Counted from the stretch's first letter, positions 8,834 to 62,824 are shown. The stretch is DNA of 64,000 nt from Anaerolineales bacterium (GCA_050115475.1 JASFQL010000009.1:20613-84612); one strand, 5' to 3'. The notes: generated from the letters alone by a model not told the origin. Program-made: numbers and translations.

Positions 8834-8850
8834 TCAAAAAGGAGACCATC

Positions 8851-10418: not shown

Positions 10419-10458
10419 GGAAATATCACCTCACGGAGATAATAATCAAGACAAGTAC

Positions 10459-11117: not shown

Positions 11118-11603
11118 TCAGCCAGTAGAAACGAGATGACGTACGCGTGTATACGACCCATCTACGACCGCATCCCGTACAATGCTTGGTCGAAGGTCGA
11201 CTTCACCTAAACCATCAAGCGGCAGCCAATGGTATTCCAAAGCAGGATTGGTCGAACGCAGGTCTTCAAGATCAAGAGTGACCTCGAAGTAATGCCCCAG
11301 GCCGTGCCGGATCTCTCCCTCATAGTGAAAGAAGTTTTCTACGACGAAAAGATACTCGGCCTGGAGGACCTCAGTTCCTATCTCTTCACGTATTTCCCGC
11401 CGGATACAATCCAGCATGGTCTCACCAACCTGAAGGCCACCTCCTAAGAAGTAGTAGAACGGATTCTCGATCTCTATATTCTTTTCTAATAGAATACACT
11501 CTCGATCTTTATTGAAGATAATCGCCCGTACGCCGGTGCGAATACTCCCCCCAGCCGCTAACCATTCGAAATATTCATTATCGTCACCCATAGAGTACTC
11601 CAT
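11118..11603 (-). CDS. NUDIX hydrolase
   Basis: Nudix box GGGLQVGETMLDCIRREIREEIG (G-x5-E-x7-REUxEExGU). Confidence 0.75.
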   Translation of the reverse strand: MEYSMGDDNEYFEWLAAGGSIRTGVRAIIFNKDRECILLEKNIEIENPFYYFLGGGLQVGETMLDCIRREIREEIGTEVLQAEYLFVVENFFHYEGEIRHGLGHYFEVTLDLEDLRSTNPALEYHWLPLDGLGEVDLRPSIVRDAVVDGSYTRVRHLVSTG

Positions 11604-11736
11604 AATTTATTATCACCGAAACGAAAGAAATCCGCCATACAATCTCACGAAAAGAGGCTGCCTTTTCAGACAGCCTCTTCATCATAGTCCTGTTAGATTT
11701 CAGATAAACTCGATGGAACTGATTTATATTTTTTCC

Positions 11737-12792
11737 CTATTCTTCCTTCTTTTGTTTATCAGCCTTCTTTGATTTACGCCAGCGGACAAGGGCCACAACA
11801 CCCCAGATAATGAGGCCGAAGAAGACCAACCACGGAAGGGTGGAGATACCGAAGAAGATCAGGAAGTCCACGAAGTCTTGGCCGCTATCAATCAAGCGTT
11901 CAATCGCATAGCGAACAGTCTCCGAAGGGTTCCATTTCGTATCGATGGGCTCATAGAGGATATTGGGTTCCAGTGTGACGCTGATGCGGGAGAGTTTGGC
12001 CGATTCACTCAAGAAACTGCGCCGTGCTTTCAACGCCTCGATTTCCGATTCCCTGATCGTCAATTGGGCTTCTGCCTGCAGAAGGTCTTCGGTGGTGTCG
12101 GCTTCTTCCATGATGGTCAATAAACGATCACGGGCAGATTCCAGGGATTCGATCCGGCTAGTGACGTCCACGTATTCTTCAGTTACGTCCTCTGACCATT
12201 CATTCGCATAGGTCACCTCAACAGCCATATCGGCGATTTTATCCATTACTATGTCGAACTCTTCGACAGGTACGCGGATGACCATCGAAATGTTGGGTGA
12301 AAGATCTTCCCCACGGCTGTTTTCTGTGCTGCTGACGACGAAAGCTCCCTTGTCCATCATGGTAACAATCAAGCTTTCGATATTGTCTCGGGCCTGGCGT
12401 GTATCCTCTACCTGCACCTGGATGTTACCCTCGCGGACAATCAGGCGTTCAGCGGGAATTACTACGGACGTTGACGCAGAAGCATTATCCATATCGACGG
12501 CGAGAAGTGAAGGCGCAGGCGCGTATGCCTTGTCTTCAGCAACCCCGTATTCCTCAACCCACTCGCCGTCATCATAGTAGTTTCCCCCGCCATAACCGAT
12601 ATCTGGCGCGGCCATGGAATATTCAGATCTCATTGACAACGGTGAAATGAAAACTATCAACAAGAATCCGACGATGCAGAGGGCAGGCACGCCAATAACG
12701 ACGCCCCAAAACACCGGCTTCTTTACCTTCCAACGATTGAAAAGATTGATTTCAGACATGATTTTCTCCATTCCTTTCTTTAGACGATTCAA
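11737..12792 (-). CDS. Membrane-anchored DUF4349-like protein
   Basis: N-terminal TM helix, central acidic/coiled-coil region and C-terminal TM helix. Motif recall only. Confidence 0.45.
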   Translation of the reverse strand: MNRLKKGMEKIMSEINLFNRWKVKKPVFWGVVIGVPALCIVGFLLIVFISPLSMRSEYSMAAPDIGYGGGNYYDDGEWVEEYGVAEDKAYAPAPSLLAVDMDNASASTSVVIPAERLIVREGNIQVQVEDTRQARDNIESLIVTMMDKGAFVVSSTENSRGEDLSPNISMVIRVPVEEFDIVMDKIADMAVEVTYANEWSEDVTEEYVDVTSRIESLESARDRLLTIMEEADTTEDLLQAEAQLTIRESEIEALKARRSFLSESAKLSRISVTLEPNILYEPIDTKWNPSETVRYAIERLIDSGQDFVDFLIFFGISTLPWLVFFGLIIWGVVALVRWRKSKKADKQKKEE

Positions 12793-12971
12793 TTGAGTAT
12801 ATCGGATTTCAAGATGGGATGCAACGAGTGCGGCAGTGTAATCCTAGCAGACGTTCCAACCTCTCTTTCAATCCATATCTGGTGATATAACGACGCAAAG
12901 ACGAAAAATGTTCCCACTAACGAACATCAGATGAAGGGAATATAGGTTTATCAGTTTTCTTTTATCTTGGA

Positions 12972-13364
12972 TCAACGCCTAAGGAAGCGGTTATCATAGC
13001 GGGGTTTTAATGGACCGGTGTCTGTGAGACTACGATCTAAAGCCCAATGTCCAATATCAGAAACGGGCTGGTAAAGATTTGGTCGTAAGGCTGAAAGGAT
13101 ATCTACGGCAAAGTCGCGGCGCCAATCGTTTGGCGCATTTATCGAGATGTAAATCATATAATACAGATGGGGAAGATGGGCGCGGTCTTCCCAATTCTTA
13201 ATCGTCTGGTAGGAAACACCTTCCCCCAAATCAGCAAGGATTTGATTGAGGGCAACAGCAAAATCACGAAGGGAAAGTGGATGACCGTTTTCTCCCAGAA
13301 TTTGCCGGTAAGCGTAAACGATGTCGGCAACAGCTCGTCTGATCGGCAGTGTGTGATCAATCAT
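12972..13364 (-). CDS. Hypothetical protein (possible HTH-containing)
   Basis: 130-aa ORF. Weak HTH-like segment VSYQTIKNWE. Confidence 0.35.
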   Translation of the reverse strand: MIDHTLPIRRAVADIVYAYRQILGENGHPLSLRDFAVALNQILADLGEGVSYQTIKNWEDRAHLPHLYYMIYISINAPNDWRRDFAVDILSALRPNLYQPVSDIGHWALDRSLTDTGPLKPRYDNRFLRR

Positions 13365-13520
13365 CAGTCTATTTATTTCATCAGAACGTTTGTTCTATTA
13401 TACATTGGTTTTTATCCCTTGGCAAGAGTTTCGATTGAAAATCGAAAGGCAAATATGAAGTGAATGACCCCTTATTATTTCACCACAAAGTCACATGGGA
13501 AAGAAGTCATTCAGTTGAAT

Positions 13521-13600
13521 AGTGGTCATTAATCAGGGATCAGGTAATCAGGGACTAGTAATCAGGTAATTAGGTGATTCGGTAACTACGTTACTATCCT
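13521..13600. repeat. Short direct repeats (GTAATCAGG variants) plus a GAATACGCAATAC motif at 13667-13690, flanking the tandem array
   Basis: taatcagggatcaggtaatcagggactagtaatcaggtaattagg read directly. The motifs are shared with the dispersed repeat family further right. Confidence 0.5.
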
Positions 13601-13687
13601 TTTTACATATCCGTGATTTCTATATTTAATTACGCTATTGAAAAGGAAACGAAAAAATACCAGTGACACGAAATACGGAATACGCAA

Positions 13688-14835
13688 TACTCTTTCCCCA
13701 ATTCTCTACTTAAATTTTTGGATTATTTGCCCGCAAACTGGTTTGATATTTAAAAGTAAGTCACCCATCAGGAGGAGGGCTAATGCTTCGCATTCGCTTG
13801 GGAGAATGGGGAAAAAGGCAGTTTGAAAATTAATTGTATTTTTTCCGAAGCTCTTCAATAGATGCTATCTTCTCCCATTCTCCACTTAATAATAATGGTA
13901 TTCGCCTAATGGGATTCTTTGCGGTTAAAAGTAAGTCGCCCATCAGGAGGAGGGCTAATGCTTCGCATTCGCTTGGGAGAATGGGGAAAAAGGCAGTTTG
14001 AAAATTAATTGTATTTTTTCCGAAGCTCTTCAATAGATGCTATCTTCTCCCATTCTCCACTTAATAATAATGGTATTCGCCTGATGGGATTCTTTGCGGT
14101 TAAAAGTAAGTCGCCCATCAGGAGGAGGGCTAATGCTTCGCATTCGCTTGGGAGAATGGGGAAAAAGGCAGTTTGAAAATTAATTGTATTTTTTCCGAAG
14201 ATCTTCAATAGATGCTATCTTCTCCCATTCTCCACTTAATAATAATGGTATTCGCCTGATGGGATTCTTTGCGATTAAAAGTAAGTCGCCCATCAGGAGG
14301 AGGGCTATTGCTTCGCATTCGCTTGGGAGAATGGGGAAAAAAGCAGTTTGAAAATTAATTGTATTTTTTCCGAAGCTCTTCAATAGATGCTATCTTCTCC
14401 AATTCTCCACTTAATAATAATGGTATTCGCCTGATGGGATTCTTTGCGGTTAAAAGTAAGTCGCCCATCAGGAGGAGGGCTATTGCTTCGCATTCGCTTG
14501 GGAGAATGGGGAAAAAGGTAATTTGGAAATCGGTTGTTTTTTTATGAAGCTCTTCAATAGATAGTATTTTTCCCCATTCTCCACTTAATATTTGGATTAT
14601 TTGCCCGCAAACTGGTTTGATTTTTAAAAGTAAGTCACCCATTAGGAGGAGGGCTAATGCTTCGCATTCGCTTGGGAGAATGGGGAAAAAAGCAGTTTGA
14701 AAATTAATTGTATTTTTTCCGAAGCTCTTCAATAGATGCTATCTTCTCCAATTCTCTACTTAAATATTTGGATTATTTGCCCGCAAACTGGTTTGATTTT
14801 TAAAAGCAAGTCGCCCATCAGGAGGAGGGCTGACG
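13688..14835. repeat. Tandem array of about 6.5 copies of a highly structured 175-bp unit (two unit variants). Each unit carries SD + ATG/TTG + 16-codon micro-ORF (MLRIRLGEWGKRQFEN).
   Basis: Period of exactly 175 bp (SD-ATG at 13783, 13958, 14133, 14308, 14483, 14657). Units are over 90% identical. Internal inverted repeats CCTGATGGG/CCCATCAGG, GGAGAATGGG/CCCATTCTCC and GCTTCG/CGAAGC. The overlapping 67-aa minus-strand ORFs are frame-shifted artefacts of the repeat. Confidence 0.9.
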
Positions 14836-15006
14836 GGCGACTCAGCACAAGGAGGAGATGTGCACTACGGAGTTGTCATTTGGATGACTCAGCGATGCAA
14901 CATCTTACACATATTATACTGATAATTAAGAGAAAGATTGTTAGAAAATTGTAAGAATCCCATGAAGATATCTATTTTTCTAGTCATGAAAGAGAGTAAG
15001 AAACAG

Positions 15007-15522
15007 TTATCCACTCTTACCTAAATCGCTGGTTTCGCGATAATCAACATGAAGTTCGTCACAAAATCGTTTAACTTTTTCTTCAGGTATCTGTTTGGAG
15101 ATAAACATGGGATCATCGAAGAAAGCATCGTGCCATTCCAAGAGGACCTGGTCTTGTTTATAGACATGCAGGTGGATGGCCACCTCAGGTGAAGCCCGAT
15201 TTTCTGTTAATTTAGACAAGGTTTCAATATGCGCAGGCGTCATGCGTATGTGGAAGATATTCGGCCGGGGCCAGATGGTCCCTACTGCGACCTTCACCGG
15301 ATTTTCAATGGTATGCTGTTCCAGGAAAGCTGATAGCTCTTTGTCCGGGTACCCCCCTTCTAAATACAGAATCACCTCTTGAGAAAAGATGAACTCCAGG
15401 GCACGCAGAAATATGGGAAAATCTTGAATGGGAGACACCTTCCAAGCAGGAGGATGTAAAGAGATTCCATCAGGATTCAACACCCATTCCAGCCCTAATA
15501 ATTTAAGCAGCCATGGCTTCAT
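15007..15522 (-). CDS. Hypothetical protein
   Basis: 171-aa ORF, no motif recognised. Stop/start junction with the M50 protease gene. Confidence 0.4.
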   Translation of the reverse strand: MKPWLLKLLGLEWVLNPDGISLHPPAWKVSPIQDFPIFLRALEFIFSQEVILYLEGGYPDKELSAFLEQHTIENPVKVAVGTIWPRPNIFHIRMTPAHIETLSKLTENRASPEVAIHLHVYKQDQVLLEWHDAFFDDPMFISKQIPEEKVKRFCDELHVDYRETSDLGKSG

Positions 15523-16286
15523 CAGAACAGTGTACGACTTCGCCCTTGAACGGTTAAATAACTTTGACCCGCTAAAATGGCAAACAAAAGCGCCATATAC
15601 ATACTATTTAGTAGAAATAGTCCGACGATTGATGCGAGTGCGCCAAATATCACAGAAAGCCAGAGGGAATTTCTCACGCCATCCCATGGATCAGCTTTCA
15701 AGAAAAGGTGACGGGCGACATTCCCACCGTCCAAGGGATAGACCGGAAGCAGGTTGATAATCCCCCAGAAAATACTCACCCAAAGGAAAGTACTCACAAA
15801 GGAATATACAAGGGAATATCCGCCGGGGAGAATCACCACGGGCATGGGGATAAAACCAAAAACCCAATTTATCCAGACCGCACCACCCGTAGCAAAGACC
15901 ACAATACTAATGACCACCGCCGAAAAAAAGCCTGCAAAAGGTCCCGCCAGCGAGACCAGGATTTCTTGGTTCGAAGTAAAGGATTCGCTGATTGTAGTCC
16001 CTCCCCATCGTGAAGGTATGGGGATCGTCAAACCACCAAAATGATATAGGAGAATATACGAAGGCTGCCCATACATCCACATGACAAGGGCATGTCCCAG
16101 TTCATGAATGAGAATGGCAATAAAGATAACCAAAATCCATACTAATAAAACTAGAATATCGGGAGAGTTGAGTCCGAAGAGGAGGGCCATGAGCCAAAAT
16201 AAGGGGTGGACTTGCACAGGGATCTTTCCGAGATTGAAAACGAGATCGTAGCGTGTTTGAGGTGGGGGTTGGAAAAATGTCATCAA
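15522..16286 (-). CDS. Site-2 protease family (peptidase M50-like) intramembrane zinc metalloprotease
   Basis: HExxH inside a TM helix (ILIHELGHALVMWMYG). Multi-TM. Confidence 0.65.
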   Translation of the reverse strand: MMTFFQPPPQTRYDLVFNLGKIPVQVHPLFWLMALLFGLNSPDILVLLVWILVIFIAILIHELGHALVMWMYGQPSYILLYHFGGLTIPIPSRWGGTTISESFTSNQEILVSLAGPFAGFFSAVVISIVVFATGGAVWINWVFGFIPMPVVILPGGYSLVYSFVSTFLWVSIFWGIINLLPVYPLDGGNVARHLFLKADPWDGVRNSLWLSVIFGALASIVGLFLLNSMYMALLFAILAGQSYLTVQGRSRTLF

Positions 16287-51401: not shown

Positions 51402-52838
51402 TCACAACATCTCCACCAAGCGCCATATCTGAGCCACAAAGAAGGTAACGATGAAGCCCATGACCAGGGGCAGGAGAGCCGAAACAACCGTCCACTTGAG
51501 GCTGCCGGTCTCCTTGTAGATGGTGTAGATGGTCGTCGAGCAGGGATTGTGGATCAGGCTGAAGAGCATCAAGTTGACAGCCGTTAGCAACGTCCAGCCC
51601 CCAACATGGAATACGTCCAGGGTGGCTGCAGTTGACTCCAGCTCGAACATCACCCCCGCACCAGCCCCCACGCCCCCCAGGTTGGAGAACAAGACGGTGA
51701 ACATCAAAATCGTAGGGATGACAATCTCATTAGCCGGGATCGCTACGACGTAAGCCAGCAGGATAACGCCGTTCAGACCGAGGAGCAGCCCGAAGGGGTT
51801 CAGCCATTGGATAAGGTGCTCGGCGATGCTGACGCCCCCGATGGTGATATTGGCGCTCAACCAGATGAGTGCCCCGGCAGGCATGGCGAAAACAATCGCC
51901 CGCCACAGCACGTAGATGGTGCGGTCGATGAGAGAAGTATACAGCGTTTGGAGGATGCGCGGCGGCCGGTAAGGCGGCAGTTCCAGGCTGAAGGTCGAGA
52001 CCTCGCCCCGCAGCACCGAGCGCGACAAGACCCAGTTAAAGAACAGGGTCAGCAGCACCCCTAGGAGGGCAATCGCCACGACAGAGAGAGCTGAAATAAT
52101 CCCCGCTAGATAGGCAGGGACCATCCCGCCGATGAAGAGGGTGGCGATGAGGATCTGCGTCGGCCAACGCCCGTTGCACAGGGCAAAGTTGTTCGTGATG
52201 ATGGCGATGAGTCGCTCTCGTGGGCTGTCGATGATGCGGGTGGCGATCACCCCGGCGGCATTGCAACCGAAGCCCATCATCATGCTGAGGGCCTGCTTGC
52301 CGTGCGCTCCGGTCTTGCGGAAGATGTTGTCGAGGTTGAAAGCCATCCGAGGCAGATAGCCGAAATCCTCCAATAAGGTAAAGAGGGGAAAGAAGATCGC
52401 CATGGGTGGGAGCATCACGCTCACGACCCAGGCAGTCGCCAGGTACATCCCGTCGATGAGCAGGCCGTCCAGCCACCAGGGCATCCCGATACTGGCTGCC
52501 AATCCTTTCAGCCAGGGATGGACGGTATCCAGCAACAGGTTGGCGAGTAGGGAGGAGGGAACGTTGGCCCCGGAGATGGTCAGCCAAAAGACGAGGGTGA
52601 ACAGCAGGAGCATGATGAGGAACCCCCACGTCCGGCTGGTGACAACTTTATCGATCGTGCGGTCCAAGTCGAAACGGAGTGGTTTTTCCGGTCGAGTTAT
52701 AGCCCGGTCGGCTATGCGGGAGGCATCGGTGTAGATGGATTCCACCAGCTTTTCGTGGAAATCCACTCCCACCTGGGCACGAAGCTGCTGTGCAGATCTT
52801 AAGATATCTGTTGGTGAAAGTTTACTTTTATCACTCAT
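51402..52838 (-). CDS. feoB: Ferrous iron transporter FeoB, membrane (permease) portion, encoded as a separate ORF
   Basis: Starts with the post-GTPase helical region ([11 protein letters not shown]...[11 protein letters not shown]), then gate/nucleoside-recognition-type TM domains. Start ATG overlaps the upstream TGA stop (ATGA). Confidence 0.8.
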
Positions 52839-53695
52839 ACAGCTGCCTCCTTGAGGGACATCTCTTCCAGATCCTCAAGCTGCCCGTCTAAGTTTAGCAG
52901 TTCGCCCAACTCGCCGCTTTGCAGCGCCTGGATGATTTCCTCGTCCCCATCCAATAGGCGTAAAGCCAGCCAACGCGGGTTAGGGAGGTCGGGATAGAGG
53001 GTATGGATCTGATCCGAGAGAGTCGTAATGGCATGCTTGAGGGCTGGTGATTCGGCCTTGATGCGGTAGGGTTTGGCGCGCACCCTGCCCAAGGCAACGT
53101 CGTGGATGGCCTCCAGCAGTTCGGGGATGCCTACTCCATAGCGAGCGGAAGCAGGCACGACCGGTACGCCCAAATCCCGCGCCAGGCGACGGTCGTCCAC
53201 TTGCAGACCGTGGCGTTTGGCCTCGTCCATCAGGTTGAGGCACACGACCACCCGGTCGGTGATCTCCAATATTTGGAGGACGAGGTTGAGGTTGCGCTCC
53301 AGGCGATTAGCGTCCACGACCACGACGGTCACGTCCGGTTGGCCGAAGAGGATAAAGTTACGGGCCACCTCTTCATCCAGGCTGGTCGCCAGGAGGGAAT
53401 AGGTCCCCGGCAGGTCGACGATCTTGTAACGGGCATCGCCGTACTCGAAGCCCCCTTCGGCGCGGGTGACGGTCTTCCCCGGCCAGTTGCCGGTATGCTG
53501 GCGAAGGCCGGTGAGGGCGTTGAAGACGGTGCTCTTGCCCACGTTGGGGTTGCCAGCCAGGGCAACGACGTAATCCCAATCTTGCATATCGACTCCCAGC
53601 TTGAGGAGGTTGGTAGCCCGGTGGGCCGGACAGCCCACGCAGGGGTCGGCGGTCTGTAATGTGTTGATGCTTTCTTCGCTCATGATATTCCTCAT
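52835..53695 (-). CDS. feoB: Ferrous iron transporter FeoB, N-terminal GTPase (G-domain + GDI helical) portion, separate ORF
   Basis: G1 [10 protein letters not shown]2/G3 region TVTRAEG...DLPG, G4 NLMD. Confidence 0.85.
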
Positions 53696-53781
53696 TTACG
53701 TGTCATTCCAAATCATTGAAGATGGAAATAACACGATCTTTTATGATTGCAAACTCTGCATTTTGTAAATAACGTTACTTT

Positions 53782-53814
53782 ACTAAAGACTAACGACTAT
53801 AGACTAAAGACTAT
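53782..53814. repeat. Short dispersed repeat cluster (ACTAAAGACTAACGACTATAGACTAAAGACTA) between the regulator gene and feoB
   Basis: Read from the sequence. Member of the GACTAA-rich intergenic repeat family also present at 56.5, 57.2, 59.8, 61.0 and 61.8 kb. Confidence 0.6.
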
Positions 53815-53818
53815 CAAA

Positions 53819-54841
53819 CTACCCGACCGGCTCCACCCGAATCCACTGCGCCTGGTCGCCGCGGATGGCGATCAAGGCATCACGGATGCGGTAAGCGGTC
53901 GGATCCCCACCCGGACTGATGAACTCCGGCGAAATGACCGTGCCGGGAAGGATACCCAGGTCCATCATACGGCGGCGTTCCGCCCCACGGATGCGGGGGG
54001 AAAGGGAAACCACCTGCCCCTTCTCTCCAGGCTTGAGGCCGTTCAGAGGTTGGCCCATCGACACATCCTCAGGGACTTCGTCCTCGATGGGGACGACGGC
54101 GATGTTCGCCGCCAGGATTGGGGCCAGGACATGCTCCTCTTCCCCCACCCAGAAACGCACCCGTTGGGCATCGTTTTCAGTGACCCGCACGACCATTCCG
54201 GGGTACAAACCTTCAGCAACAATCTGGGCTGCCACGGTCTCAGGCTCGTCGCTTACGTGTACGATACGGCCCAAGGTGTTCACTCCAATTTTGGAAAGCG
54301 GTTCCCCCACCTGTTCCCACACCTCACCCTCCTGGGAAGGGATGGGATCCCCATGGGGGTCGAAAACCGGATGCCCCAGGCTGATGGCCAGTTCGTCGAT
54401 CTGCTCCGGCGTGAGGGTGTGCTCGATCTCGTCGGCAATGAGGTGCCATTCCGTCTCATCAAATCCGCTATGCTCGGCGAGGTACTGCTCCCACAATCGG
54501 TGGGCGCGGATGAGGTTCAGCGCGATCGACTCGCCATCCGGAGTCAGCCGGATGGTCTCCCCTTCACACACCAGTAGGCCGCTCTCTTCAAGATCGGTGA
54601 GGACCTGCATAGCCAGATTGCGGTCTACCCCGATGGCTCCGGCGACATTCATCAGCGTGGGATTCTTCCCGGCGTGCACCATTTTCTGGATGTGCTTGAG
54701 GGTATCTTCGCGCAGCACACGCCCGGTGACCCTACGCATCGACCGCCAGCGGGGGATCACGCCCGTCGCCGGCCAGAACAAGACCAGGCTGGCTCCGATC
54801 ACTGCAGCAGCGATAATCATCAACAATAATGGATTGAGCAT
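53819..54841 (-). CDS. DtxR/MntR-family metal-dependent transcriptional regulator fused to two FeoA (SH3-like) domains
   Basis: wHTH TLMNVAGAIGVDRNLAMQVLTDLEESGLLV, dimerisation helix LIRAHRLWEQYLAEH. Two FeoA-like segments (LSKIGVNTLGRIVHV...VVRVTE; LKPGEKGQVVSLS...WIRVEPV). The first 24 residues are strongly hydrophobic, so the start is uncertain (possibly at MRRVTG). Confidence 0.7.
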   Translation of the reverse strand: MLNPLLLMIIAAAVIGASLVLFWPATGVIPRWRSMRRVTGRVLREDTLKHIQKMVHAGKNPTLMNVAGAIGVDRNLAMQVLTDLEESGLLVCEGETIRLTPDGESIALNLIRAHRLWEQYLAEHSGFDETEWHLIADEIEHTLTPEQIDELAISLGHPVFDPHGDPIPSQEGEVWEQVGEPLSKIGVNTLGRIVHVSDEPETVAAQIVAEGLYPGMVVRVTENDAQRVRFWVGEEEHVLAPILAANIAVVPIEDEVPEDVSMGQPLNGLKPGEKGQVVSLSPRIRGAERRRMMDLGILPGTVISPEFISPGGDPTAYRIRDALIAIRGDQAQWIRVEPVG

Positions 54842-54878
54842 ACTTCCTCCAAGTCAGATTTAGACCTATAAGGTAATA

Positions 54879-54913
54879 TTTCGCTAAATTATAATTTAGG
54901 TAAAGCTAAATGT
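54879..54913. promoter_or_regulatory. Candidate DtxR/iron box (TTAGGTAAAGCTAAAT; arms ATTTAG-N6-CTAAAT) in the promoter region of the dtxR-feoAB operon
   Basis: Matches the TWAGGTWAGSCTWACCTWA consensus at about 13 of 19 positions. About 40-70 nt upstream of the regulator ORF. Confidence 0.3.
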
Positions 54914-55049
54914 CAAGCACTCATTTCATTCCTAATGGGTAGACTGAACCTTTTTTGCTTTTCTTACTTTTAGGGAATGCCAATCAAGTGAGAAAGGCTG
55001 TATAAACACCTATGCCAACCAAAGCCTAAAATATCCAGGCGTGGCCGTA

Positions 55050-55376
55050 TTATTTCCAATCCACTCCATCATAATAGCGTGTCCCCCGGTGGCCCTGGCG
55101 TGGGATAGGTTCCGCCAGGCGCTCTCCCGGAGTGGCGACGAAGATAAGGCTGCGCGGTTTTCCCGATTGGGGATTAACGGCCCCGGTTTCGATGCGGGTG
55201 ATGGTCAAACGCCCGATCAACATATTGTCCCAGATGGTGTAAACGTAATCGCCGACCTTCAATTTAGAGGGTTTCCCCGCCATGTGGAATTCGAACTCCC
55301 CCACCGGCCCATCGTACAGCGTGTTAACGGCTTCGATCCCGTGTTTTTGGGGGATGGTTTTTGTTATACCACTCAT
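55050..55376 (-). CDS. Hypothetical protein (possible PUA/ASCH-like beta-barrel)
   Basis: 108-aa ORF, weak resemblance only. Confidence 0.35.
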   Translation of the reverse strand: MSGITKTIPQKHGIEAVNTLYDGPVGEFEFHMAGKPSKLKVGDYVYTIWDNMLIGRLTITRIETGAVNPQSGKPRSLIFVATPGERLAEPIPRQGHRGTRYYDGVDWK

Positions 55377-55459
55377 GTCTTTTCACCTCGAAATGATTAT
55401 ACCGGAGGATTGAGCGCCAACTACGCACCTCTATTGGGTATTGACAGATTACAGGATGC

Positions 55460-56479
55460 CTAATCCCCATCAAGATACTTTGCCAAACCAAACGAGGCTG
55501 CGCCCATCAATGCGGCTTTGGGGTTGAGGACAACGTGCACCGGAATATCGACCAGGAGATCGCGGAAGCGCCCCTTTCCTTGTAAGGCTTCGAGGAAAGT
55601 GGGTTTCTGCAGCTCCGGCAGGATGCGCGGCGGCAAACCACCCCCCAGGTATATCCCCCCCGTCGCCAGGATTTTGAGTGCCAGGTTGCCCGCTTCAGCT
55701 CCCAAGATGGCGGCAAACAAGTCAAGGACGGCGGCAGCCAGTTCACAGGGACGGCTGCTGTCATTGGCGGCGGATAAGATCACAGGAGTGGGATCTTCGG
55801 CCCCTGACAACTGTGCTGCCAGCCAATCCGGTTCGGGCATACCGGTCGATTTCAGGTAAGTATACAGGGTGGGGATCCCCAGGCCGCCGGAACAGACCCG
55901 CTCGAAGCCGACGTGGTCGAAACCCTGTTGGTTGAGGTAAGTCAACAAACCAATCTGCAAAGCACCCACCGGGGCAAACGAGGCGTGACCGCCCTCCGAG
56001 GCATGGACTTCACAGCGCCCCCCCTTGAAGGTCAGGAAGGCCTCTCCCAGACCCGTACCCGGTGCGATCACGGCGACATTCCCCCCGGCCACCGGCAAGC
56101 CCTCGCTGAGTGTGTGAATATCCTCCGGACCCAAAGCGGTTACGGCGTGGGCAAGTGCTTCCAGGTCGTTCAACAGCGCCACGCCCGACCAGCCGAAAGC
56201 TGCTTTGAGGCTGGCGGCATCCACCGTCCAGGGAAGGTTGGTGACCTGGGCTCGCCCGGCGATGACAGGCCCCGCCACCGCAAAACAAGCCCGTTCGACC
56301 GTCAACCCGGTCTCTGCCAGAAACTCGGTGACAATCGCCTCCAGGTTCTCATAGTCCCCACTTTGAAAAGACCGTTCGACCAGCAGCATGTGGGGGATCG
56401 AACCAGCGGAAAAAATCGCCAGGAGGGATTTGGTCCCGCCAATATCGCCTACGAGTACATTCATAAATCCGCCTGCCAA
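55460..56479 (-). CDS. glk: Glucokinase (Glk family)
   Basis: N-terminal LVGDIGGTKS (compare E. coli Glk LVGDVGGTNAR), central VIAPGTGLGEAFL. Confidence 0.75.
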   Translation of the reverse strand: MAGGFMNVLVGDIGGTKSLLAIFSAGSIPHMLLVERSFQSGDYENLEAIVTEFLAETGLTVERACFAVAGPVIAGRAQVTNLPWTVDAASLKAAFGWSGVALLNDLEALAHAVTALGPEDIHTLSEGLPVAGGNVAVIAPGTGLGEAFLTFKGGRCEVHASEGGHASFAPVGALQIGLLTYLNQQGFDHVGFERVCSGGLGIPTLYTYLKSTGMPEPDWLAAQLSGAEDPTPVILSAANDSSRPCELAAAVLDLFAAILGAEAGNLALKILATGGIYLGGGLPPRILPELQKPTFLEALQGKGRFRDLLVDIPVHVVLNPKAALMGAASFGLAKYLDGD

Positions 56480-56565
56480 AGAGCAACCATCAGGTTTGGT
56501 GAGTATCGCTATTTAATCTAGACACCATAAATATACACTATTTCCCTTGCCTTGTTGTCTGGTTG

Positions 56566-56612
56566 GGTAGTCTCTAGTCGCTAGTCTTTAGTCTTTAGTT
56601 GTCAGTCGATCG
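56566..56612. repeat. Dispersed repeat cluster (TAGTCTCTAGTCGCTAGTCTTTAGTCTTTAGTTGTCAGTCG), reverse orientation of the CTAAAGACTA family
   Basis: Read from the sequence. Confidence 0.6.
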
Positions 56613-56682
56613 GGCGGACAGGATATTTAGGTTTGGTGGGAAGTACAAAGATGGGAGAGTGGATGTATAATAGTATATAGAG

Positions 56683-57195
56683 GTGTTTATGGATGATCCC
56701 GATGTCGAGGAAATCAAGACTATTTTATTGAAACACGAGCAGTATCAGTTTTCAGATGCAGAACTCTACCAATTCCACGTGTTGGGGGCATCCTTGATGG
56801 ACCCCATCTTCGAATTAATCGACGCCAGCCGCCCGGATGACGCTGAACCGACAGAACGTAATTCCGCCCTATCGGAGAAAAGCGGGCAAATCACGGCATA
56901 CTTCGTGCGCTCGTCGTTCATACTGGGCCTTGAATATTTCGATGAAATCACGGACAACAATTTGGATTTGGAGAATTACGAAGATATCCCCTCCCAGGCA
57001 GTCAAGCTGTTGGGCATCATTTATAAACCCATGGATAACCTGTTCTTGGAACTGATGAACGAGGTCTACGATCTGGGAAACAAAAGCAAAGAAGAAATGC
57101 AGGCGATGATTGATAACTGCCGGCAGGCTGCCGTGGGGGTGCAGATGAACAGCTTCCGCTTAGGGGTCGCCTCAGGGGAAACAAACCAGGGGTGA
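56683..57195 (+). CDS. Hypothetical protein
   Basis: 170-aa ORF, acidic, no motif. Confidence 0.4.
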   Translation: MFMDDPDVEEIKTILLKHEQYQFSDAELYQFHVLGASLMDPIFELIDASRPDDAEPTERNSALSEKSGQITAYFVRSSFILGLEYFDEITDNNLDLENYEDIPSQAVKLLGIIYKPMDNLFLELMNEVYDLGNKSKEEMQAMIDNCRQAAVGVQMNSFRLGVASGETNQG

Positions 57196-57206
57196 ACTGG
57201 GGTGGA

Positions 57207-57320
57207 GATAGTTAGGTAGTTAGATAGTTGGGTAGTCGTTGGTCGTTAGTCAAATCGTTAGCCCGGGAGTGCGTATTGTGTGTTGCGGTCGCACGATTAC
57301 GAAATACGCAATACGCAATT
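57207..57320. repeat. Dispersed repeat cluster containing GTAGTCGTTGGTCGTTAGTCAAA (reverse complement of TTTGACTAACGACCAACGACTAC) and CGAAATACGCAATACGCAAT
   Basis: 20-nt exact reverse-complement match to 61838-61857. Confidence 0.65.
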
Positions 57321-57550
57321 CTTATCACAACGACAAGGGGGATTTCCCATCCCCGCCTATTGGCTCCATCATCAAAATCAGCCTATATCATGTATAATAA
57401 TATTCAGAAGAGGTTGATACAGGGGGGAACTTACATAACACTTCGTCAGCCCGACACTACGACCGTTGAAACTTTCCATCCCTGTTCTCTCTTCCTACCG
57501 CTCTATTCCATGTTCTAATAGGCAAAGGTATTTACCTGGAGGAGGTAAAC

Positions 57551-58975
57551 GTGGCAAAGATTGCGAAGTGTATCCTTTTTATTCTCATTCCTGCAGTTTT
57601 GTTCCTATCGGGGTGTAGTTCAGATCCACCTACGAATGTGACCATCACCGACATCAGTTGGGAGAGTGATAGTAATCCCCTTCACTGCGGTGAAACAGGC
57701 ATTGTCACCGCGAAAGTTTCCTTGGAGGTAGGATCGCCGGGCGAGCAATCGATTAGATTTAAAATCTCGCTGTGGGATCACGATGGTTGGTTTGATAGTG
57801 ACGATGAGTTAGCTGAAGCGGCGAATCGCCCCGTACTTCGAGCGACGACAGGCAGGGTAACGAAACAGCAGTTGTCGGAGCCTATCGAGGTTTTCTGCTC
57901 AGAGGCACCGGACTGCGAGTTAGAAGGTGCCTCAGATTCATCGGGTGAAATGGTCGCTGAACCCTACGTCTACGTTCAATGGGCGGACAACAACGCAGAG
58001 ATCAAGGGTTGGGAGAAGAAGCCAATGGACTTCGAGTGTGTCGTCCCCATTGAAGACGAAGACGACACGGATGTCGAAGAGATAGAAACGCCAGAACCGA
58101 TTTCCGAAGAAGAAACAGAAGAACCGCAACCCGCTGGGGTTGTCGTTGTGGGTTCTCTCTTTAAGGATATGAACGTCAACGGCGTCAAAGATGCGGATGA
58201 ACCCGTCGCGCCGGACCTGGAAGTCCGTATCATAGAACTGGAATGTGGGGATGCCTGCGACCCGGTCGCCGAGGTGACAAGCGATGATGAAGGCAACTAT
58301 ACGCTCGAATACGTCCCCCAGGTAGACACGAACTATACGCTCGATGTCGATTGGGTCGGCTGGCAGGCTTATTTAACATTGCTGCCTACCGACAATTTCG
58401 TCGACCTTTTGGGGGCCGCGTCACCCGGTGACACGGTCTCGATTCTACCTGTCGGCTGGGTCCCCATGGAGAGAACCTTTACTGACCCCACCGGAGATAA
58501 TGTAATAGTTGGCACGGATGACCCGATCGATAACCCGAACGGGGATATTGAGTCGGTGACGGTTGAGGTGACCCTCGATGGTTCGATCAGAATCCAGATC
58601 GATCTCGCCGACAACGATTTGCTAGATAGCGCTTACAGCTGGGGGCAGTTCGTCACCGAGAATCGCAATGGAACGATAACGACCTACACACATCATAAGT
58701 CGCCTGAGGGCTTTATCGATAAAGGCCAGATGGACGGGGGAAGTGGTGGCCGCCCAAACATCGTCGAATCCGATGCCGAAGTAGAGTTGGGTAGTTACTA
58801 CCTACCAGCGAGGGAAATCCCCTCCGGACCGCCGCCGTTTTATGAAGTCGATGTCGATTGGTATTACCAACCTGGTGAAGGGGACGGTATGAGCCATGAC
58901 TCAAGTGAAATCCCCGAAGGGAATCTTGACTTTGTTGAGTTTTGGTTGGATATCTTTCCAACGACCCTCGAATAG
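57551..58975 (+). CDS. Secreted lipoprotein, acidic, unknown function
   Basis: Signal peptide with lipobox LSGCSS. Asp/Glu-rich segments. SD GGAGGAGG before the GTG/ATG. Confidence 0.55.
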   Translation: MAKIAKCILFILIPAVLFLSGCSSDPPTNVTITDISWESDSNPLHCGETGIVTAKVSLEVGSPGEQSIRFKISLWDHDGWFDSDDELAEAANRPVLRATTGRVTKQQLSEPIEVFCSEAPDCELEGASDSSGEMVAEPYVYVQWADNNAEIKGWEKKPMDFECVVPIEDEDDTDVEEIETPEPISEEETEEPQPAGVVVVGSLFKDMNVNGVKDADEPVAPDLEVRIIELECGDACDPVAEVTSDDEGNYTLEYVPQVDTNYTLDVDWVGWQAYLTLLPTDNFVDLLGAASPGDTVSILPVGWVPMERTFTDPTGDNVIVGTDDPIDNPNGDIESVTVEVTLDGSIRIQIDLADNDLLDSAYSWGQFVTENRNGTITTYTHHKSPEGFIDKGQMDGGSGGRPNIVESDAEVELGSYYLPAREIPSGPPPFYEVDVDWYYQPGEGDGMSHDSSEIPEGNLDFVEFWLDIFPTTLE

Positions 58976-59248
58976 TCAAGAGATTAGGCAGGCTTATCGG
59001 GACGGGTGCTGCCCGTCCCGTTTTTTTCACCGCGGCCTCACCGGCTGGGTCTTGGACGCTGATAGGGAAAGGTATTGGGGTGGGGACCTACTTTCTCACC
59101 ACCAACCCACTAAAGCACGAAGAAAAGCAATCAAGCCTCTATGGGGAGTGACTTCTCGCCCTTGACAAAAGTTTTTCTATGGGGTGGGGAAGAGAGGGGG
59201 TAGTAATAACTGCTTCTATTGATGAAGTGTTAGGATAACTATTATTAA

Positions 59249-59500
59249 TTAAGGAGTAAGTTCTGACCCATTCGAATATGCCATTTCCGGTGGAAGCAAA
59301 TTGTAATTAATTATTATTTCGCCCCAATCTTCTAAACCTAAAGCAACGGAAATTACAGCCTTATCATGTAGAAGTTGGTCTTCATTTGAATTGAGTATAT
59401 CAATTATATCATCGTCTTTATGCCCTTTAGATGATAAATGTACTATATTTAATAATCCTCCACCCTCATTCCCAATCAGTACCAAAGAACCAAAGTACAA
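59249..59500 (-). CDS. Small hypothetical ORF within an AT-rich island
   Basis: 83-aa ORF in a markedly AT-rich 350-bp stretch; may be spurious. Confidence 0.2.
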   Translation of the reverse strand: MYFGSLVLIGNEGGGLLNIVHLSSKGHKDDDIIDILNSNEDQLLHDKAVISVALGLEDWGEIIINYNLLPPEMAYSNGSELTP

Positions 59501-59792
59501 TTATCCTGTTTTCTGCTATAATCGAATTGGCGCGTCCCCGGGGTGCCCCCCTCACCTCGGGGCGTGCTATTTTTATTCACGGAAGCGCCATTCTCATCAC
59601 ACGTAATGTATCCCAGGGGGTAGGTAACGGGTTCATGGTCTGTTCATCCGGACCAAAATCAATCAACCTGCGGATGGCTCCCGCCTGATTCTTCCCATTT
59701 CCGCCCATATCCCAATCATAGCACATTTGTTCTTTTTAGGCAAGTAAATACTTAGGAATGTTAAGTTTAGGGTAGAAATGTTATCAACCCCA

Positions 59793-59892
59793 TCTATTGC
59801 GTATTCCGTATTGCGTAAATAGCCTCACGGAATACGCAATCCCAAGTTGACTACCGACCAACGACTAGAAACTAAAGACTAATGACTAACGC
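59793..59892. repeat. Dispersed repeat cluster: inverted pair ATTGCGTATTCCG / CGGAATACGCAAT, then GAATACGCAATCCCAAGTTGACTACCGACCAACGACTAGAAACTAAAGACTAATGACTAAC
   Basis: About 45 nt is roughly 85% identical to 61812-61857. Overlaps the 3' end of the LVIVD gene. Confidence 0.65.
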
Positions 59893-60904
59893 CTATCCGT
59901 AAAACCGCCAATCCCTCGAACGGAGTCGCATACACCAGGCCGTTCATGCAGGTCACGTCGTGGACGCCATCGCCCACCTCGTAGGAACCCACCTCGACCG
60001 GCGCCGCCATATCAGCCAGGTCAAAGACCGACACCAACCCACGGGTCAGGCTGGCGCACAGGTAACCGCCGGATACCGACAGGCCTGAGACCTCCTCCCC
60101 GATAAGGAGTTCCCGGACGAGTCTGGGGGAGGCCGGGTCTGCCAGGTCGTAGATTTTGACGCCCCCGCTGAACAGTCCCAGGAACAGATACCCGCCAGAT
60201 ATCTCGACCTTACGCGCCCCCGAGGTCCCCGGGACGACTGTAATTTCACGCGGTGAGGAGATGTCCGTGATATCGAGGACCAGCAGACCACGTTTGCTGT
60301 TGGCCAGATAGGCGTAATCGCCCTCCACGTCCAGGCCCCACAGTCCCCCGCCGTCCGTGTAACTACCAACCTGCACCGGCGCAGACGGGTCGGAGATATC
60401 GACGATCTCCAGCCCCTCCTCGATGTCCGCCAGGTAAGTATACGCCCCCTCGACCCGGACGTTGTAAATCGAGCCGCTGTCTGTGTAACGGCCCAGCACT
60501 ACGGGATGCGCTGGGCCGGAAATATCCACGATCATCAGGTCTCCCCCGCTGTCGCCCGCGTAAGCTCGGTCGTCGACTGCCAGGACGGCAAAGGAGGGTT
60601 GTCCGGTGGCGATCTCGGCGATCAACGCCGGCCGAGCCGGGTCGCTCATGTCCAGCACAGCGACCCCATCGTTGTTCGTTACGTAGGCGTATTTGCCCCA
60701 GACGGATATACCGTAAGAAATGCCCAACTGCAGGGTTGAAAGCTCCTCCAACGCGCCGAAAGCCTGTCCCTGCAGGGGATGGCAGGATGCAGCCGTGAGA
60801 GAGAATAAAGCCGCTAAGGCCAGGACCGCCCACTTCTTGGCCCTCTTTGTTGACCGGGATCGGAGCCTGTCTGCGCCTGAGCGTGTCTCATGCAAAACGT
60901 CCAT
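59879..60904 (-). CDS. Secreted LVIVD-repeat beta-propeller protein
   Basis: Repeats of G-Y-A-Y-L-A...GL-V-L/V-D-I-S-D-P-S-x-P (YAYVTNNDGVAVLDMSDPARP, YTYLADIEEGLEIVDISDPSAP, YAYLANSKRGLLVLDITDISSP). N-terminal signal peptide. Confidence 0.65.
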   Translation of the reverse strand: MDVLHETRSGADRLRSRSTKRAKKWAVLALAALFSLTAASCHPLQGQAFGALEELSTLQLGISYGISVWGKYAYVTNNDGVAVLDMSDPARPALIAEIATGQPSFAVLAVDDRAYAGDSGGDLMIVDISGPAHPVVLGRYTDSGSIYNVRVEGAYTYLADIEEGLEIVDISDPSAPVQVGSYTDGGGLWGLDVEGDYAYLANSKRGLLVLDITDISSPREITVVPGTSGARKVEISGGYLFLGLFSGGVKIYDLADPASPRLVRELLIGEEVSGLSVSGGYLCASLTRGLVSVFDLADMAAPVEVGSYEVGDGVHDVTCMNGLVYATPFEGLAVLRIGVSH

Positions 60905-60947
60905 AGAAGAAATCCTCCGTCAGACGATTATAAGTGAAAAAAACAAG

Positions 60948-61115
60948 CGTGATCAGTGATCAGTCGCCCAGGAATCAGGATGAAATCCCTTACTGATGAC
61001 TGATCCCCCACTCACTGATTACTAATTACCTGAGTGACTTGTTGCCTGATTACTGGTTGACCAACGACTAAAGACTAATGACCACTCGACGAATGACTAA
61101 GCTCCCTGATGACCC
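60948..61115. repeat. Dispersed repeat cluster (TGATCAGTGATCAGTCGCC...TACTGATGACTGATCC...TTGACCAACGACTAAAGACTAATGACCACTCGACGAATGACTAAGC)
   Basis: Read from the sequence. Extends into the 3' end of the acetyltransferase gene, so the C-terminal tail SHSSSGH is repeat-encoded. Confidence 0.55.
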
Positions 61116-61680
61116 TGGCCGGATTCCCCGCTGCAATCGTGTTCGTGAGGACATTTTTGGTGACGACCGCCCCCGCCCCCACCACGGCGTTCCGCCCGAT
61201 CGTCACCCCCGGCAGGAGGATGGCCCCACCCCCGATCCACACGTTGTCCCCGATGGTGATGGGTTTGGCCACCTCCAACCCCCGGTTCCGTTCCTCCGCG
61301 TCCAGCGAGTGGGCCGCCGTCAGGAACTGGACGGCAGGCCCGACCATGACGTGGTTCCCAAAGCGCACTTCGTTGTTATCCAGGATTGTACACATGTAGT
61401 TCAAAAAGACGTGGTCGCCGAGATAGATATTCTTCCCATAGGTGAAATAGAAAGGCGGCCAGACGAGTGAGTTCTTCCCCACCCCGCCCAACATCTGCGG
61501 CAGAAGCGCCTGGCGTTGGTCTTCGCTTTCTACTCGGTTGTAGCGCAGCATTAGTTCCTTGGCTTTTTGGCGTTCAGCTTCCAGGTCTGGGTCGAGGAAG
61601 CTGTACATCTCCCCAGCCAGCATCTTCTTTTTTTCGCTTCTTTTCGGCATCACGCCTCTCCTTTTCGACCAGATGAACAT
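61075..61680 (-). CDS. Sugar O-acetyltransferase (maltose/galactoside acetyltransferase family, left-handed beta-helix)
   Basis: Hexapeptide repeats ITIGDNVWIGGGAILLPGVTIGRNAVVGAGAVVTKNV and an N-terminal Mac-like segment. Confidence 0.8.
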   Translation of the reverse strand: MFIWSKRRGVMPKRSEKKKMLAGEMYSFLDPDLEAERQKAKELMLRYNRVESEDQRQALLPQMLGGVGKNSLVWPPFYFTYGKNIYLGDHVFLNYMCTILDNNEVRFGNHVMVGPAVQFLTAAHSLDAEERNRGLEVAKPITIGDNVWIGGGAILLPGVTIGRNAVVGAGAVVTKNVLTNTIAAGNPARVIRELSHSSSGH

Positions 61681-61756
61681 TTTATTTATTATTCAACCAG
61701 AAGCACCAAAATGTCAAGTTATGGGGGGAAAGTTAACTCTTTTACGCTGCAGCACG

Positions 61757-61870
61757 ATAGTCCTTTGTCTTTAGTCACTAGTCTTTAGTCTGGTCGTCGA
61801 AAAGTTGTATGCAATACGCAATCCTAAGTTGACTAATGACTAACGACCAACGACTACTTGACTACTATTA
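61757..61870. repeat. Dispersed repeat cluster (TAGTCCTTTGTCTTTAGTCACTAGTCTTTAGTC ... TGCAATACGCAATCCTAAGTTGACTAATGACTAACGACCAACGACTACTTGACTAC) in the divergent promoter region between the acetyltransferase gene and sodN
   Basis: Contains the 20-nt GACTAACGACCAACGACTAC that is also found reverse-complemented at 57232-57251. Confidence 0.65.
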
Positions 61871-61978
61871 ACATTTTGTCTAAATCCCCTCCCTGCCCCC
61901 CATTTGTGAACCTTTTGTACCCGATTTGTGATATATTTGTGCCAACCATTACTCATTATCCTTTAGGAGGAACAAAAA

Positions 61979-62449
61979 ATGAAACCCCTGACCCAAATGA
62001 TTAGCAATACCTTCCCGGCCAACGAGGCCCACGCTCACTGCGACGGCCCCTGCGGCGTCTACGACCCCGCCTCCGCCCGTATCGCCGCCGAAGCTGTCCT
62101 CTCCATGACCAAGAAGATCCTGGCCCTCAAAGCCCCGGAAAGCAAAGACGACATGGCCTGGGCTGCTTACCGCAATTCGATGGTGCGCTACATCCAGATC
62201 AAAGAAGAGCAGGCCCAGATCGCCAAGGACGAACTCCTCATCCTGTGGACGGACTACTTCAAACCCGCCCACCTGGAGAAATACCCCGACCTCCACGACA
62301 CCTTCTGGCAGGCCGCCAAGCTGTGCTCCGCCGTCAAGGTCGAGGTCAGCCTGGAGAAAGCCGAAGCCCTCATGGAGACCTGCAAGAAGGTCCACGAGAT
62401 CTTCTGGGCGACCAAAGGCAAGCAGGTCGCATACTACACAGCCAGCTAA
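61979..62449 (+). CDS. sodN: Nickel-containing superoxide dismutase precursor
   Basis: Ni-hook HCDGPCGVYDPA directly after a short propeptide (…ANEAHA|HCDGPCG). Four-helix-bundle length (156 aa). Confidence 0.85.
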   Translation: MKPLTQMISNTFPANEAHAHCDGPCGVYDPASARIAAEAVLSMTKKILALKAPESKDDMAWAAYRNSMVRYIQIKEEQAQIAKDELLILWTDYFKPAHLEKYPDLHDTFWQAAKLCSAVKVEVSLEKAEALMETCKKVHEIFWATKGKQVAYYTAS

Positions 62450-62824
62450 TTGACGTATAAACAACCATCGGAAGAGTTATCCCCTGCTGGGCTGGTAGAG
62501 CTGGCCTTATGGCTGGTGGGACGGCGGAAACGAGTCCGCATTGCCGGGACGTCGATGGCCCCCCACCTCCACGATGGGGATGAGATCCTCGTCGACCTCC
62601 ACGCATACAGGCGGACTACCCCCCAACCTGGGGACGTTGTCCTCGCCCAACACCCCTATCGGCGGGACCTCAGGCTGGTCAAGCGGGTGGAGGCTGTGCT
62701 GGAAAGGGACCGCTACAAACTCTGGGGGGATAACCCTTCCGAAAGTAGCGACAGCCGGACCTTTGGCGATATGCCCCGCTCGCACATCCTGGGGCGGGTG
62801 ACGTGTATCTTCACAAGGAGGTAG
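62450..62824 (+). CDS. sodX: NiSOD maturation peptidase (S26 signal-peptidase-like, SodX)
   Basis: GTSMAP (GxSMxP catalytic Ser motif) and LVKRV (catalytic Lys region). 124 aa. Starts 1 nt after the sodN stop. Confidence 0.7.
   Translation: MTYKQPSEELSPAGLVELALWLVGRRKRVRIAGTSMAPHLHDGDEILVDLHAYRRTTPQPGDVVLAQHPYRRDLRLVKRVEAVLERDRYKLWGDNPSESSDSRTFGDMPRSHILGRVTCIFTRR

Follow-up and report, generated by a model that had tools for sequence, protein, structure and literature searches.

Heptanucleotide intergenic repeats have been known since 1990, first in cyanobacteria, and for REP elements a role as 3′-end stabilisers or insulators has been proposed. Here, we describe intergenic heptamer arrays in a 64,000-nt stretch of DNA (hereafter, the window) from a metagenome-assembled genome of Anaerolineales. 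They belong to the class of intergenic heptanucleotide repeats that includes the STRR sequences, the TAACTGA and GGGAATC repeats, and the long simple-sequence repeats, a class for which neither function nor origin has been established.

Heptamers are the commonest long simple-sequence repeat of bacteria, for which polymerase slippage was proposed (Mrazek, 2007, as cited in PMC4679880 and PMC4692102), and the STRR sequences were described as three tandem heptanucleotides of Calothrix PCC 7601 (Mazel et al., 1990, as cited in PMC4692102). The TAACTGA repeats (MacGregor, 2015; PMC4679880) occur in marine Beggiatoaceae, cyanobacteria, and Bacteroidetes, and strains of Cyanothece exhibit indels in 7-nt steps. 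The GGGAATC and GGGGA(C/T)T repeats of Xanthomonas and Nostoc (Rehm et al., 2015; PMC4692102) are 89–93% intergenic and, in Xanthomonas, mostly transcribed; their pairs are "always convergent", with the G-rich array first and distances of 28 versus 160 nt to the open reading frames (ORFs), and no function has been established for them. REP, BIME, and REPIN elements are known from proteobacteria (for REPINs, PMC3116915).

An earlier reading made from the bare DNA (the sequence-only reading) had listed seven intergenic sites sharing three motifs, all of which were found where it placed them. The 22-mer TTGACTAACGACCAACGACTAC is exact at 57232–57253 (− strand), has one mismatch at 61836–61857 (+) and two mismatches at 59847–59868 (+), and gave no match in 100 shuffles. 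With at most one mismatch, CTAAAGACTA had 15 matches, compared to 2.5 expected from the shuffles, 13 of them within 53783–61842, and GAATACGCAAT had 7 matches, compared to 1.3; no shuffle reached the observed motif counts. The three motifs are not independent words but views into imperfect tandem arrays with a period of 7 (sometimes 8). Arrays were detected with Tandem Repeats Finder (TRF) and with a simple autocorrelation scan over periods 4–12. TRF found period-7 arrays at 13 places, including every noted site, with 2.3–4.9 copies and 74–100% matches; each is short alone, and the significance lies in the whole family. The period scan gave 10 tracts at period 7, against 0–5 at each of the other periods, and nine of these 10 are intergenic, the remaining one lying inside a doubtful 96-aa ORF. 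The unit words are 4–7 times denser in intergenic than in coding DNA, which bears out the intergenic placement proposed by the sequence-only reading. The units fall into three families, T (GACTAAN and GACCAAC), H1 (ATACGCA and ATACGGA), and H2 (xxATCAG(G), e.g., TGATCAG and TAATCAG(G)), and the GACTAAC unit includes a stop codon in each strand, TAA in one and TAG in the other.

The arrays are arranged as modules, in which a GT-rich T array is followed by an H1 or H2 hairpin and then by an AC-rich T array, or as half of such a module. Stable hairpins (z scores of −2 to −4) are predicted at 59796–59840, 57265–57323, 60949–61022, and 61758–61868, the last of which is long and imperfect (−35.8 kcal/mol, z −3.3), and the single arrays yielded no structure in the fold prediction. 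The inverted pair that had been noticed near 59794–59841 proved to be an H1 hairpin with a perfect 14-bp stem at 59796–59840 (ATTGCGTATTCCG and CGGAATACGCAAT as its arms), with fold z scores of −3.97 on the + strand and −3.83 on the − strand. The copies share the cores GGAATACGCAAT and CCAGGAATCAGG, as well as TTGAC at the inner edge of the T arrays. Outside these cores they consist of the same units in reshuffled order. The H1 and H2 hairpins fold well, but their arms are rearranged unit by unit between copies; the mean column identity in the H1 and H2 alignments is 51–52%, with large indels. The H1 and H2 cores were found in none of the other loci examined. A known RNA family was ruled out by the Rfam scans, which returned nothing above the gathering threshold for the full window and nothing at E ≤ 1 in 53600–62100, and the window scan for tRNA genes was also negative.

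Two polarity rules hold for the arrays of this genome and for those elsewhere, which were analysed as 615 distinct period-7 tracts and as loci from other contigs. The first rule concerns pairs: inverted pairs read 5′-GT-rich...AC-rich-3′. Of 87 contexts, 35 had an inverted partner on the 5′ side of the AC-rich array, whereas one had it on the 3′ side. Among the 615 tracts, the GT-rich arm was the 5′ arm with a ratio of 53:1 in the GACYA family and 23:5 in other heptamers, and the AC-rich arm was the 3′ arm with ratios of 52:1 and 17:5, respectively.

The second rule concerns gene ends: the AC-rich strand is directed toward the closest gene end. The closer gene was on the 3′ side of the AC-rich strand for 209 of 257 arrays. 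On that side, the median distance was 4 nt for facing stop codons and 17.5 nt for start codons; on the opposite side, it was 76 and 116 nt, respectively. A facing gene 3′ end lay within 15 nt in 103 of 141 cases on the AC-rich 3′ side and in 21 of 147 on the other side, and the stop codon was inside the array in 61 of the 141 gene ends facing an array. The same polarity was seen in other heptamers (95:42, p = 7e-6). No array preference was observed at these loci relative to the gene strand as such. The sequence-only reading had called the orientation inconsistent, which is true relative to the gene strand only; relative to the nearest gene end, the AC-rich strand points at the gene.

In the source genome, T arrays with a GT-rich sense strand begin 0–12 nt after eight gene 3′ ends, namely those of the DtxR/FeoA gene, a 170-aa gene, the LVIVD gene, the gene for a Mac-family acetyltransferase, and four genes in a ~9.5-kb extension of the window. 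The extension was taken from contig L246 of the Logan assembly of SRR12150545, which is identical to the last 6.3 kb of the window and whose positions 6299–15789 correspond to window-equivalent 64–73.5 kb; the analysed DNA of this genome amounts to 73.5 kb, with 11 array-bearing intergenic regions. The stop codon is inside the array in three of the eight genes. Copies running into gene 3′ ends, as the sequence-only reading had described, were confirmed for the LVIVD gene (−), whose stop (59879–59881) is held by the array at 59847–59891 that also encodes the final residues GVSH, and for the acetyltransferase gene (−), whose stop (61075–61077) is inside the array at 61057–61101 and whose protein ends in GNPARVIRELSHSSSGH. 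The acetyltransferase has a 7-residue C-terminal tail, SHSSSGH (61075–61101), that extends beyond all solved homologues. The solved homologues terminate 1–2 residues beyond the site that aligns with REL, so the array is taken to encode the tail as well as the stop. Arrays in divergent intergenic regions precede the start codons by 77–110 nt and are AC-rich on the sense strand. The genes neighbouring the arrays belong to no common class.

Three other explanations of the polarity were considered and rejected. Bracketing of genes, or pairing of the 5′ and 3′ ends of an mRNA, is contradicted by the finding that arrays point inward at both ends of one gene once in 878 genes. An origin of the pair polarity in divergent 5′ untranslated regions does not fit with the composites, which are mostly between co-directional genes. 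Selection for stop codons in all six frames was rejected as the driver because the other heptamer families exceed random heptamers only slightly in stops: those with stops on both, one, and neither strand account for 23, 45, and 32%, compared to 17, 42, and 40% for random heptamers of the same composition.

The heptamers are not confined to this genome. Searches with a degenerate 4-unit pattern gave at least 120 stretches in species-representative genomes, the matches listed being mostly in Microcoleus, Nostoc, Anabaena, and Nodularia, with others in Terriglobia, Bacteroidia, Gemmatimonadales, and Planctomycetota. The exact 20-mer TGACTAMCGACCAACGACTA was found in at least 120 metagenome contigs, with GC contents of 0.34–0.70 among the matches listed, and the units GACTAAC, GACCAAC, and GACTAAT recur in contigs over this GC range. 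The family had been proposed to be genome-specific, which these matches contradict. With regard to phages as possible vectors, the 20-mer was absent from 2.9 million viral contigs, where the generic pattern occurred in only 101 stretches; these counts speak neither for nor against such a route. On three metagenome contigs with a GC content of ~0.42 (L149, L152, and L164), GACTAAC-type arrays are on both sides of a tRNA gene and touch its 3′ end.

Like the present arrays, the STRR sequences are non-coding tandem repeats of 7-nt units, and a single intergenic region can hold a mixture of unit families; the genera that dominate the listed pattern matches are consistent with this likeness. In reverse complement, one STRR unit (TTGGTCA) reads TGACCAA, which is among the units present here. 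In contrast, the original STRR hosts are heterocystous cyanobacteria, whereas the host here belongs to Anaerolineales (Chloroflexota), and the arrays here are short, imperfect, and strongly clustered in 20 kb. With the GGGAATC repeats they share the intergenic location, the polarity of pairs, the much shorter distance to one ORF, and the strand rule at gene starts and ends; both polarity rules were reported for these repeats in Xanthomonas, with no explanation given (PMC4692102). The differences are the host phylum, the mixing of unit families of the H1 and H2 type, which is not described for the GGGAATC repeats, and the G-rich, quadruplex-forming units of the latter. Since the units here have at most two consecutive G, quadruplex formation would be unlikely in these arrays.

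The TAACTGA repeats are likewise intergenic heptamer arrays of 2–6 copies, with one unit occurring in distant phyla, stop codons within the unit, and strain differences in 7-nt steps, and the near-variants TTACTGA and TGACTGA are present at 60991–61004. However, TAACTGA arrays are mostly perfect, consist of a single unit, and lie a few nt before start codons, whereas the units here vary, most arrays follow stop codons, and those on the 5′ side are 77–110 nt from the start. Membership in the TAACTGA family, with its forward unit near the start codon, was rejected, as both units and placement differ. The REP, BIME, and REPIN elements are also extragenic, form stem-loops and inverted doublets of fixed polarity, and often lie between co-directional or convergent genes. 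They differ in that REPs are single conserved palindromes of ~20–40 nt moved by RAYT transposases, whereas the arms here are variable tandem 7-mers in copies that cannot be aligned, and the 50 window proteins scanned include no RAYT.

The arrays are clustered within the source genome. Arrays are present in 10 of the 15 intergenic regions from 53.7 to 73 kb, compared to one of 35 in 0–53.6 kb (Fisher p ~3e-6), and in the extension four of six sizeable intergenic regions carry modules of the type seen in the window. The array-poor part holds ordinary core genes (an RpoD-like sigma factor, UvrA, Ham1, and YceD); gene GC is 0.51–0.61 in the array-rich part and 0.38–0.58 in the array-poor part, and both parts consist of ordinary chromosomal genes. 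In the domain scans of the 50 window proteins, no transposase, integrase, RAYT, reverse-transcriptase, or phage domain was detected. The glucokinase gene (55460–56479, −) stands alone between array-bearing intergenic regions, and its product is 100% identical to a glucokinase that NCBI assigns to the MAG of an Anaerolineales bacterium, encoded on a 128-kb contig. Among six loci with relatives of 66–74% identity, five have the gene after a GFO_IDH_MocA gene, three of these five also with a glycoside hydrolase family 3 gene downstream, and the sixth is in a different context. None of the six has period-7 tracts in the 2–21 kb inspected of each, and their gene order differs, indicating from comparison of these sequences that the glucokinase region is rearranged relative to its relatives.

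Homologous pairs of contigs from other strains gave mixed results. The L173/L240 pair differs by 7-nt indels, and the homology of this pair, as well as that of L185/L186, ends exactly at the outer edge of the array.

Our favoured explanation, to which we give somewhat better than even chances, is that these are STRR-type heptamer arrays made by slippage, which form REP-like stem-loops at mRNA 3′ ends. We infer that the arrays arose by slipped-strand mispairing, together with local template switching, in non-coding DNA. Units of 7 nt could not expand within genes without a frameshift, and stop-bearing units would put stop codons in every frame, so that arrays would grow until they reach coding sequence. 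The arrays that lie flush against, or replace, stop codons would be explained by growth that halts at coding sequence. The orientation beside genes would then be filtered, such that the strand reading 5′ to 3′ toward the gene is AC-rich, and with this filter two arrays in one intergenic region would form the 5′-GT-rich...AC-rich-3′ inverted pair. At two-armed sites, the transcript is predicted to fold into a stable AT-rich stem-loop right after the stop codon, which may act in the manner of REP and BIME elements as a 3′-end barrier or as an insulator between adjacent transcription units. Single arrays are probably tolerated by-products. The arrays are not promoters, not sequence-specific regulator sites, and not transposase-defined MITEs.

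Several observations weigh against this explanation. Pure slippage predicts arbitrary units, yet a few units recur across GC contents of 0.34–0.70, and neither polarity rule follows from slippage alone, nor does slippage predict the regional clustering. The arrays are imperfect (74–93% matches) and short (3–6 units), so that any active slippage in this genome would be presumptive. Most homologous strain pairs exhibit point changes, not differences in unit number. In L213/L235, both arms are identical although the flanking coding DNA is ~8% different, which hints at constraint, whereas L134/L241 shows uncompensated substitutions in the arms. Moreover, the terminator scan found no U-tract after the array hairpins, including those of the H1 and H2 type. 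The recurrence of units across phyla, the polarity rules, and the clustering are left unexplained by this reading and may reflect a more interesting mechanism.

If the modules were instead mobile hairpins of the REPIN or MITE type, the inverted pair around its H1 or H2 core would be the unit copied in trans, for instance by a RAYT-type HUH transposase, and single arrays would be decayed halves. The fixed polarity of the inverted pairs, as expected for a specific hairpin element, the presence of the cores in several intergenic regions of this genome only among the loci examined, the local clustering, the strain homology that breaks exactly at array edges, and the rearranged context of glucokinase relative to its six relatives are all consistent with this. 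We nevertheless consider it unlikely, as the 50 proteins scanned lack transposase, RAYT, integrase, and reverse-transcriptase domains, the copies cannot be aligned end to end, array length and spacers vary (0–45 nt and more), and unrelated heptamers obey the same polarity, which is unexpected for a single element family. The REP-like half of the earlier REP/MITE proposal is supported as regards location and hairpins, since the elements are dispersed, intergenic, present in both orientations, and capable of stem-loops at several sites as in REP; the MITE half falls, given copies with neither defined ends nor a defined length, the low column identity, the absence of a transposase from the scanned proteins, and array edges at which no target-site duplication was seen by eye. 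Alternatively, AC-rich, G-poor, and unstructured arrays in front of start codons might act in cis at the RNA level by binding a general factor. They could be ribosome standby or S1/Csp sites, which MacGregor proposed for the TAACTGA repeats (PMC4679880), or could load Rho onto transcripts that run into a gene. A polymerase nearing a gene from either side would make AC-rich RNA, and in the loci elsewhere the AC-rich strand is the sense strand at a median of 17.5 nt upstream of starts, with arrays directly before the ribosome-binding site and ATG in L163, L138, and L207, a placement like that of the Beggiatoaceae TAACTGA repeats (PMC4679880). This role is unlikely, however. The 5′-side arrays in this genome are 77–110 nt upstream of the start, the one at the acetyltransferase gene even upstream of the best promoter-like site; in addition, gene 3′ ends are faced by the majority of the arrays here and by 141 of 257 elsewhere, the neighbours have no common class, and arrays of 20–45 nt are too short for a typical rut site.

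A promoter or operator function, in which the TTGAC of the inner T-array edges would form a −35 box or the arrays would be operators for a local regulator, e.g., of the DtxR family, is very improbable. Six T arrays begin with TTGACT or TTGACC, some arrays are in divergent intergenic regions, and a DtxR-like gene is adjacent. In the promoter consensus scan, however, the strong sites were outside the arrays, in line with the argument of the sequence-only reading against a simple promoter, and a single marginal 9-of-12 site (56599–56627, +) touches an array edge. Many arrays come after stop codons or separate convergent genes, they are not palindromic operators, and identical sequences occur in unrelated phyla. 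The related proposal of a dispersed regulator-binding motif fails on the lack of a common class among the neighbours, the position of most copies after stop codons, and the variable array length. A further possibility, to which we assign a low probability, is that the polarity rules, which hold across unrelated heptamers and contigs of many phyla, are the footprint of one conserved process acting on intergenic DNA or its transcripts, rather than of passive slippage. Such a process could be break repair or hairpin processing that leaves GT-rich 3′ ends on both sides, the polarity expected of ends that have been healed and fused and of 3′ tails favoured by Chi or RecA; it could also be a hairpin-specific enzyme, or a general insulator, where a polymerase running into a gene makes C-rich, G-poor RNA.

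Termination was considered separately. None of the terminator-like sites overlaps an array or an H1 or H2 hairpin, and the array-bearing 3′ ends in the window have no canonical terminators; GC-rich canonical terminators are used elsewhere in the genome (e.g., 58998–59027 and 10053–10083). The lack of U-tracts behind the array hairpins led us to reject canonical intrinsic terminators. The terminator at 58998–59027 is inside a gene-poor stretch of 900 nt (58976–59878). This stretch also contains an extended −10-like sequence at 59514–59522 (TGCTATAAT) and, ~14 nt further on, a GC-rich hairpin with a T-run (59536–59572); the region 59514–59572 is a candidate for a ~50-nt transcript and has no Rfam match.

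Along the window, the first arrays are at 13530–13589 (+), an unpaired H2-type array of 7/8-nt units (TAATCAGG GATCAGG TAATCAGG GACTAG TAATCAGG TAATTAGG TGATTCGG TAAC; TRF periods 7, 8, and 14) with no significant fold, and at 13668–13691 (+), an H1-type array with no partner arm (ACGAAAT ACGGAAT ACGCAAT; TRF period 7) that has a GAATACGCAAT match and aligns with the other H1 copies. The latter adjoins a 175-bp tandem array (13750–14763; 5.8 copies, 92% matches), which thus borders the heptamer tracts at 13530–13691 and in which each unit carries AGGAGG and a 16-codon ORF (MLRIRLGEWGKRQFEN). The T array at 53782–53821 (+; ACTAAAG ACTAACG ACTATAG ACTAAAG ACTATCA AACTAcc; TRF period 7, 4.6 copies) ends in a degenerate unit that provides the TAG stop (53819–53821) of the DtxR/FeoA gene (−). 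In the nearby region 51402–53695 (−), FeoB is split into two ORFs with a 4-nt overlap, the N-terminal GTPase part at 52835–53695 and the Gate/FeoB_C membrane part at 51402–52838. The T array at 56567–56609 (GACTGAC AACTAAA GACTAAA GACTAGC GACTAGA GACTAC; TRF periods 7 and 21), which is AC-rich on the − strand and unstructured, is in a divergent intergenic region ~85 nt upstream of the glucokinase gene.

Beginning 10 nt past the stop of the 170-aa gene, the array at 57206–57253 (−) has 3.5 copies of the 8-nt unit TAGTTAGG followed by a T array (GTAGTCG TTGGTCG TTAGTCAA; TRF periods 8, 16, and 7); it is GT-rich on the + (sense) strand and holds the exact 22-mer. It is followed by the H1 hairpin at 57265–57323 (GTGCGTATTGTGTGTT...AAATACGCAATACGCAA), seen in the RNA fold of 57200–57330, where TRF found 3.1 copies of TACGCAA. 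The T array containing the LVIVD stop (59847–59891, +), found by motif search and TRF, reads TTGACTACC GACCAAC GACTAGA AACTAAA GACTAAT GACTAAC. The H2 hairpin at 60949–61022 (GTGATCAGTGATCAGT...GGAATCAGG / CCTTACTGATGACTGATC; fold z −2.9 and −2.3; TRF unit GTGATCA) is bridged by H2-type units at 61023–61056 (+; CACTGATTACTAATTACCTGAG...CCTGATTACTGG, from the alignment) to the T array of the acetyltransferase 3′ end at 61057–61101 (+; TTGACCAAC GACTAAA GACTAAT GACCACT CGACGAA TGACTAA, from TRF), and the same junction is found again at L246 13230–13269.

The long imperfect hairpin has as its left arm the T array at 61758–61799, which is AC-rich on the − strand (TRF, 4.9 copies of TAGTCTT) and, at 77 nt before the acetyltransferase start, is farther upstream than the predicted promoter (promoter-like site at 61717–61688). 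Its right arm is the T array at 61829–61868 (+; TTGACTAAT GACTAAC GACCAAC GACTACT TGACTAC), which was found by motif search, TRF, and folding and is ~110 nt upstream of the nickel superoxide dismutase gene. The loop that separates the two T arms contains the H1 half-site GTATGCAATACGCAAT at 61806–61822 (+), recognised by motif match and in the H1 alignment. The region 61979–62824 comprises the nickel superoxide dismutase gene and then a short gene for an S26-family peptidase, a SodX-like maturation protease.

Taken alone, the window presents a tidy but otherwise ordinary case of a known class, to which it adds an unusually dense and modular example from Chloroflexi. The wider comparison extends the rules noted for one G-rich family of Xanthomonas to heptamers of the AC/GT type and to mixed unit families, with the same few units recurring in very different genomes, and the arrays are able to replace the native stop codon of a gene, as in the acetyltransferase. 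If one conserved process underlies the polarity, the dense 20-kb cluster would be a region of unusually high activity, and a real mechanism behind the rules, if there is one, could be put to the test with cultures of cyanobacteria or Xanthomonas.

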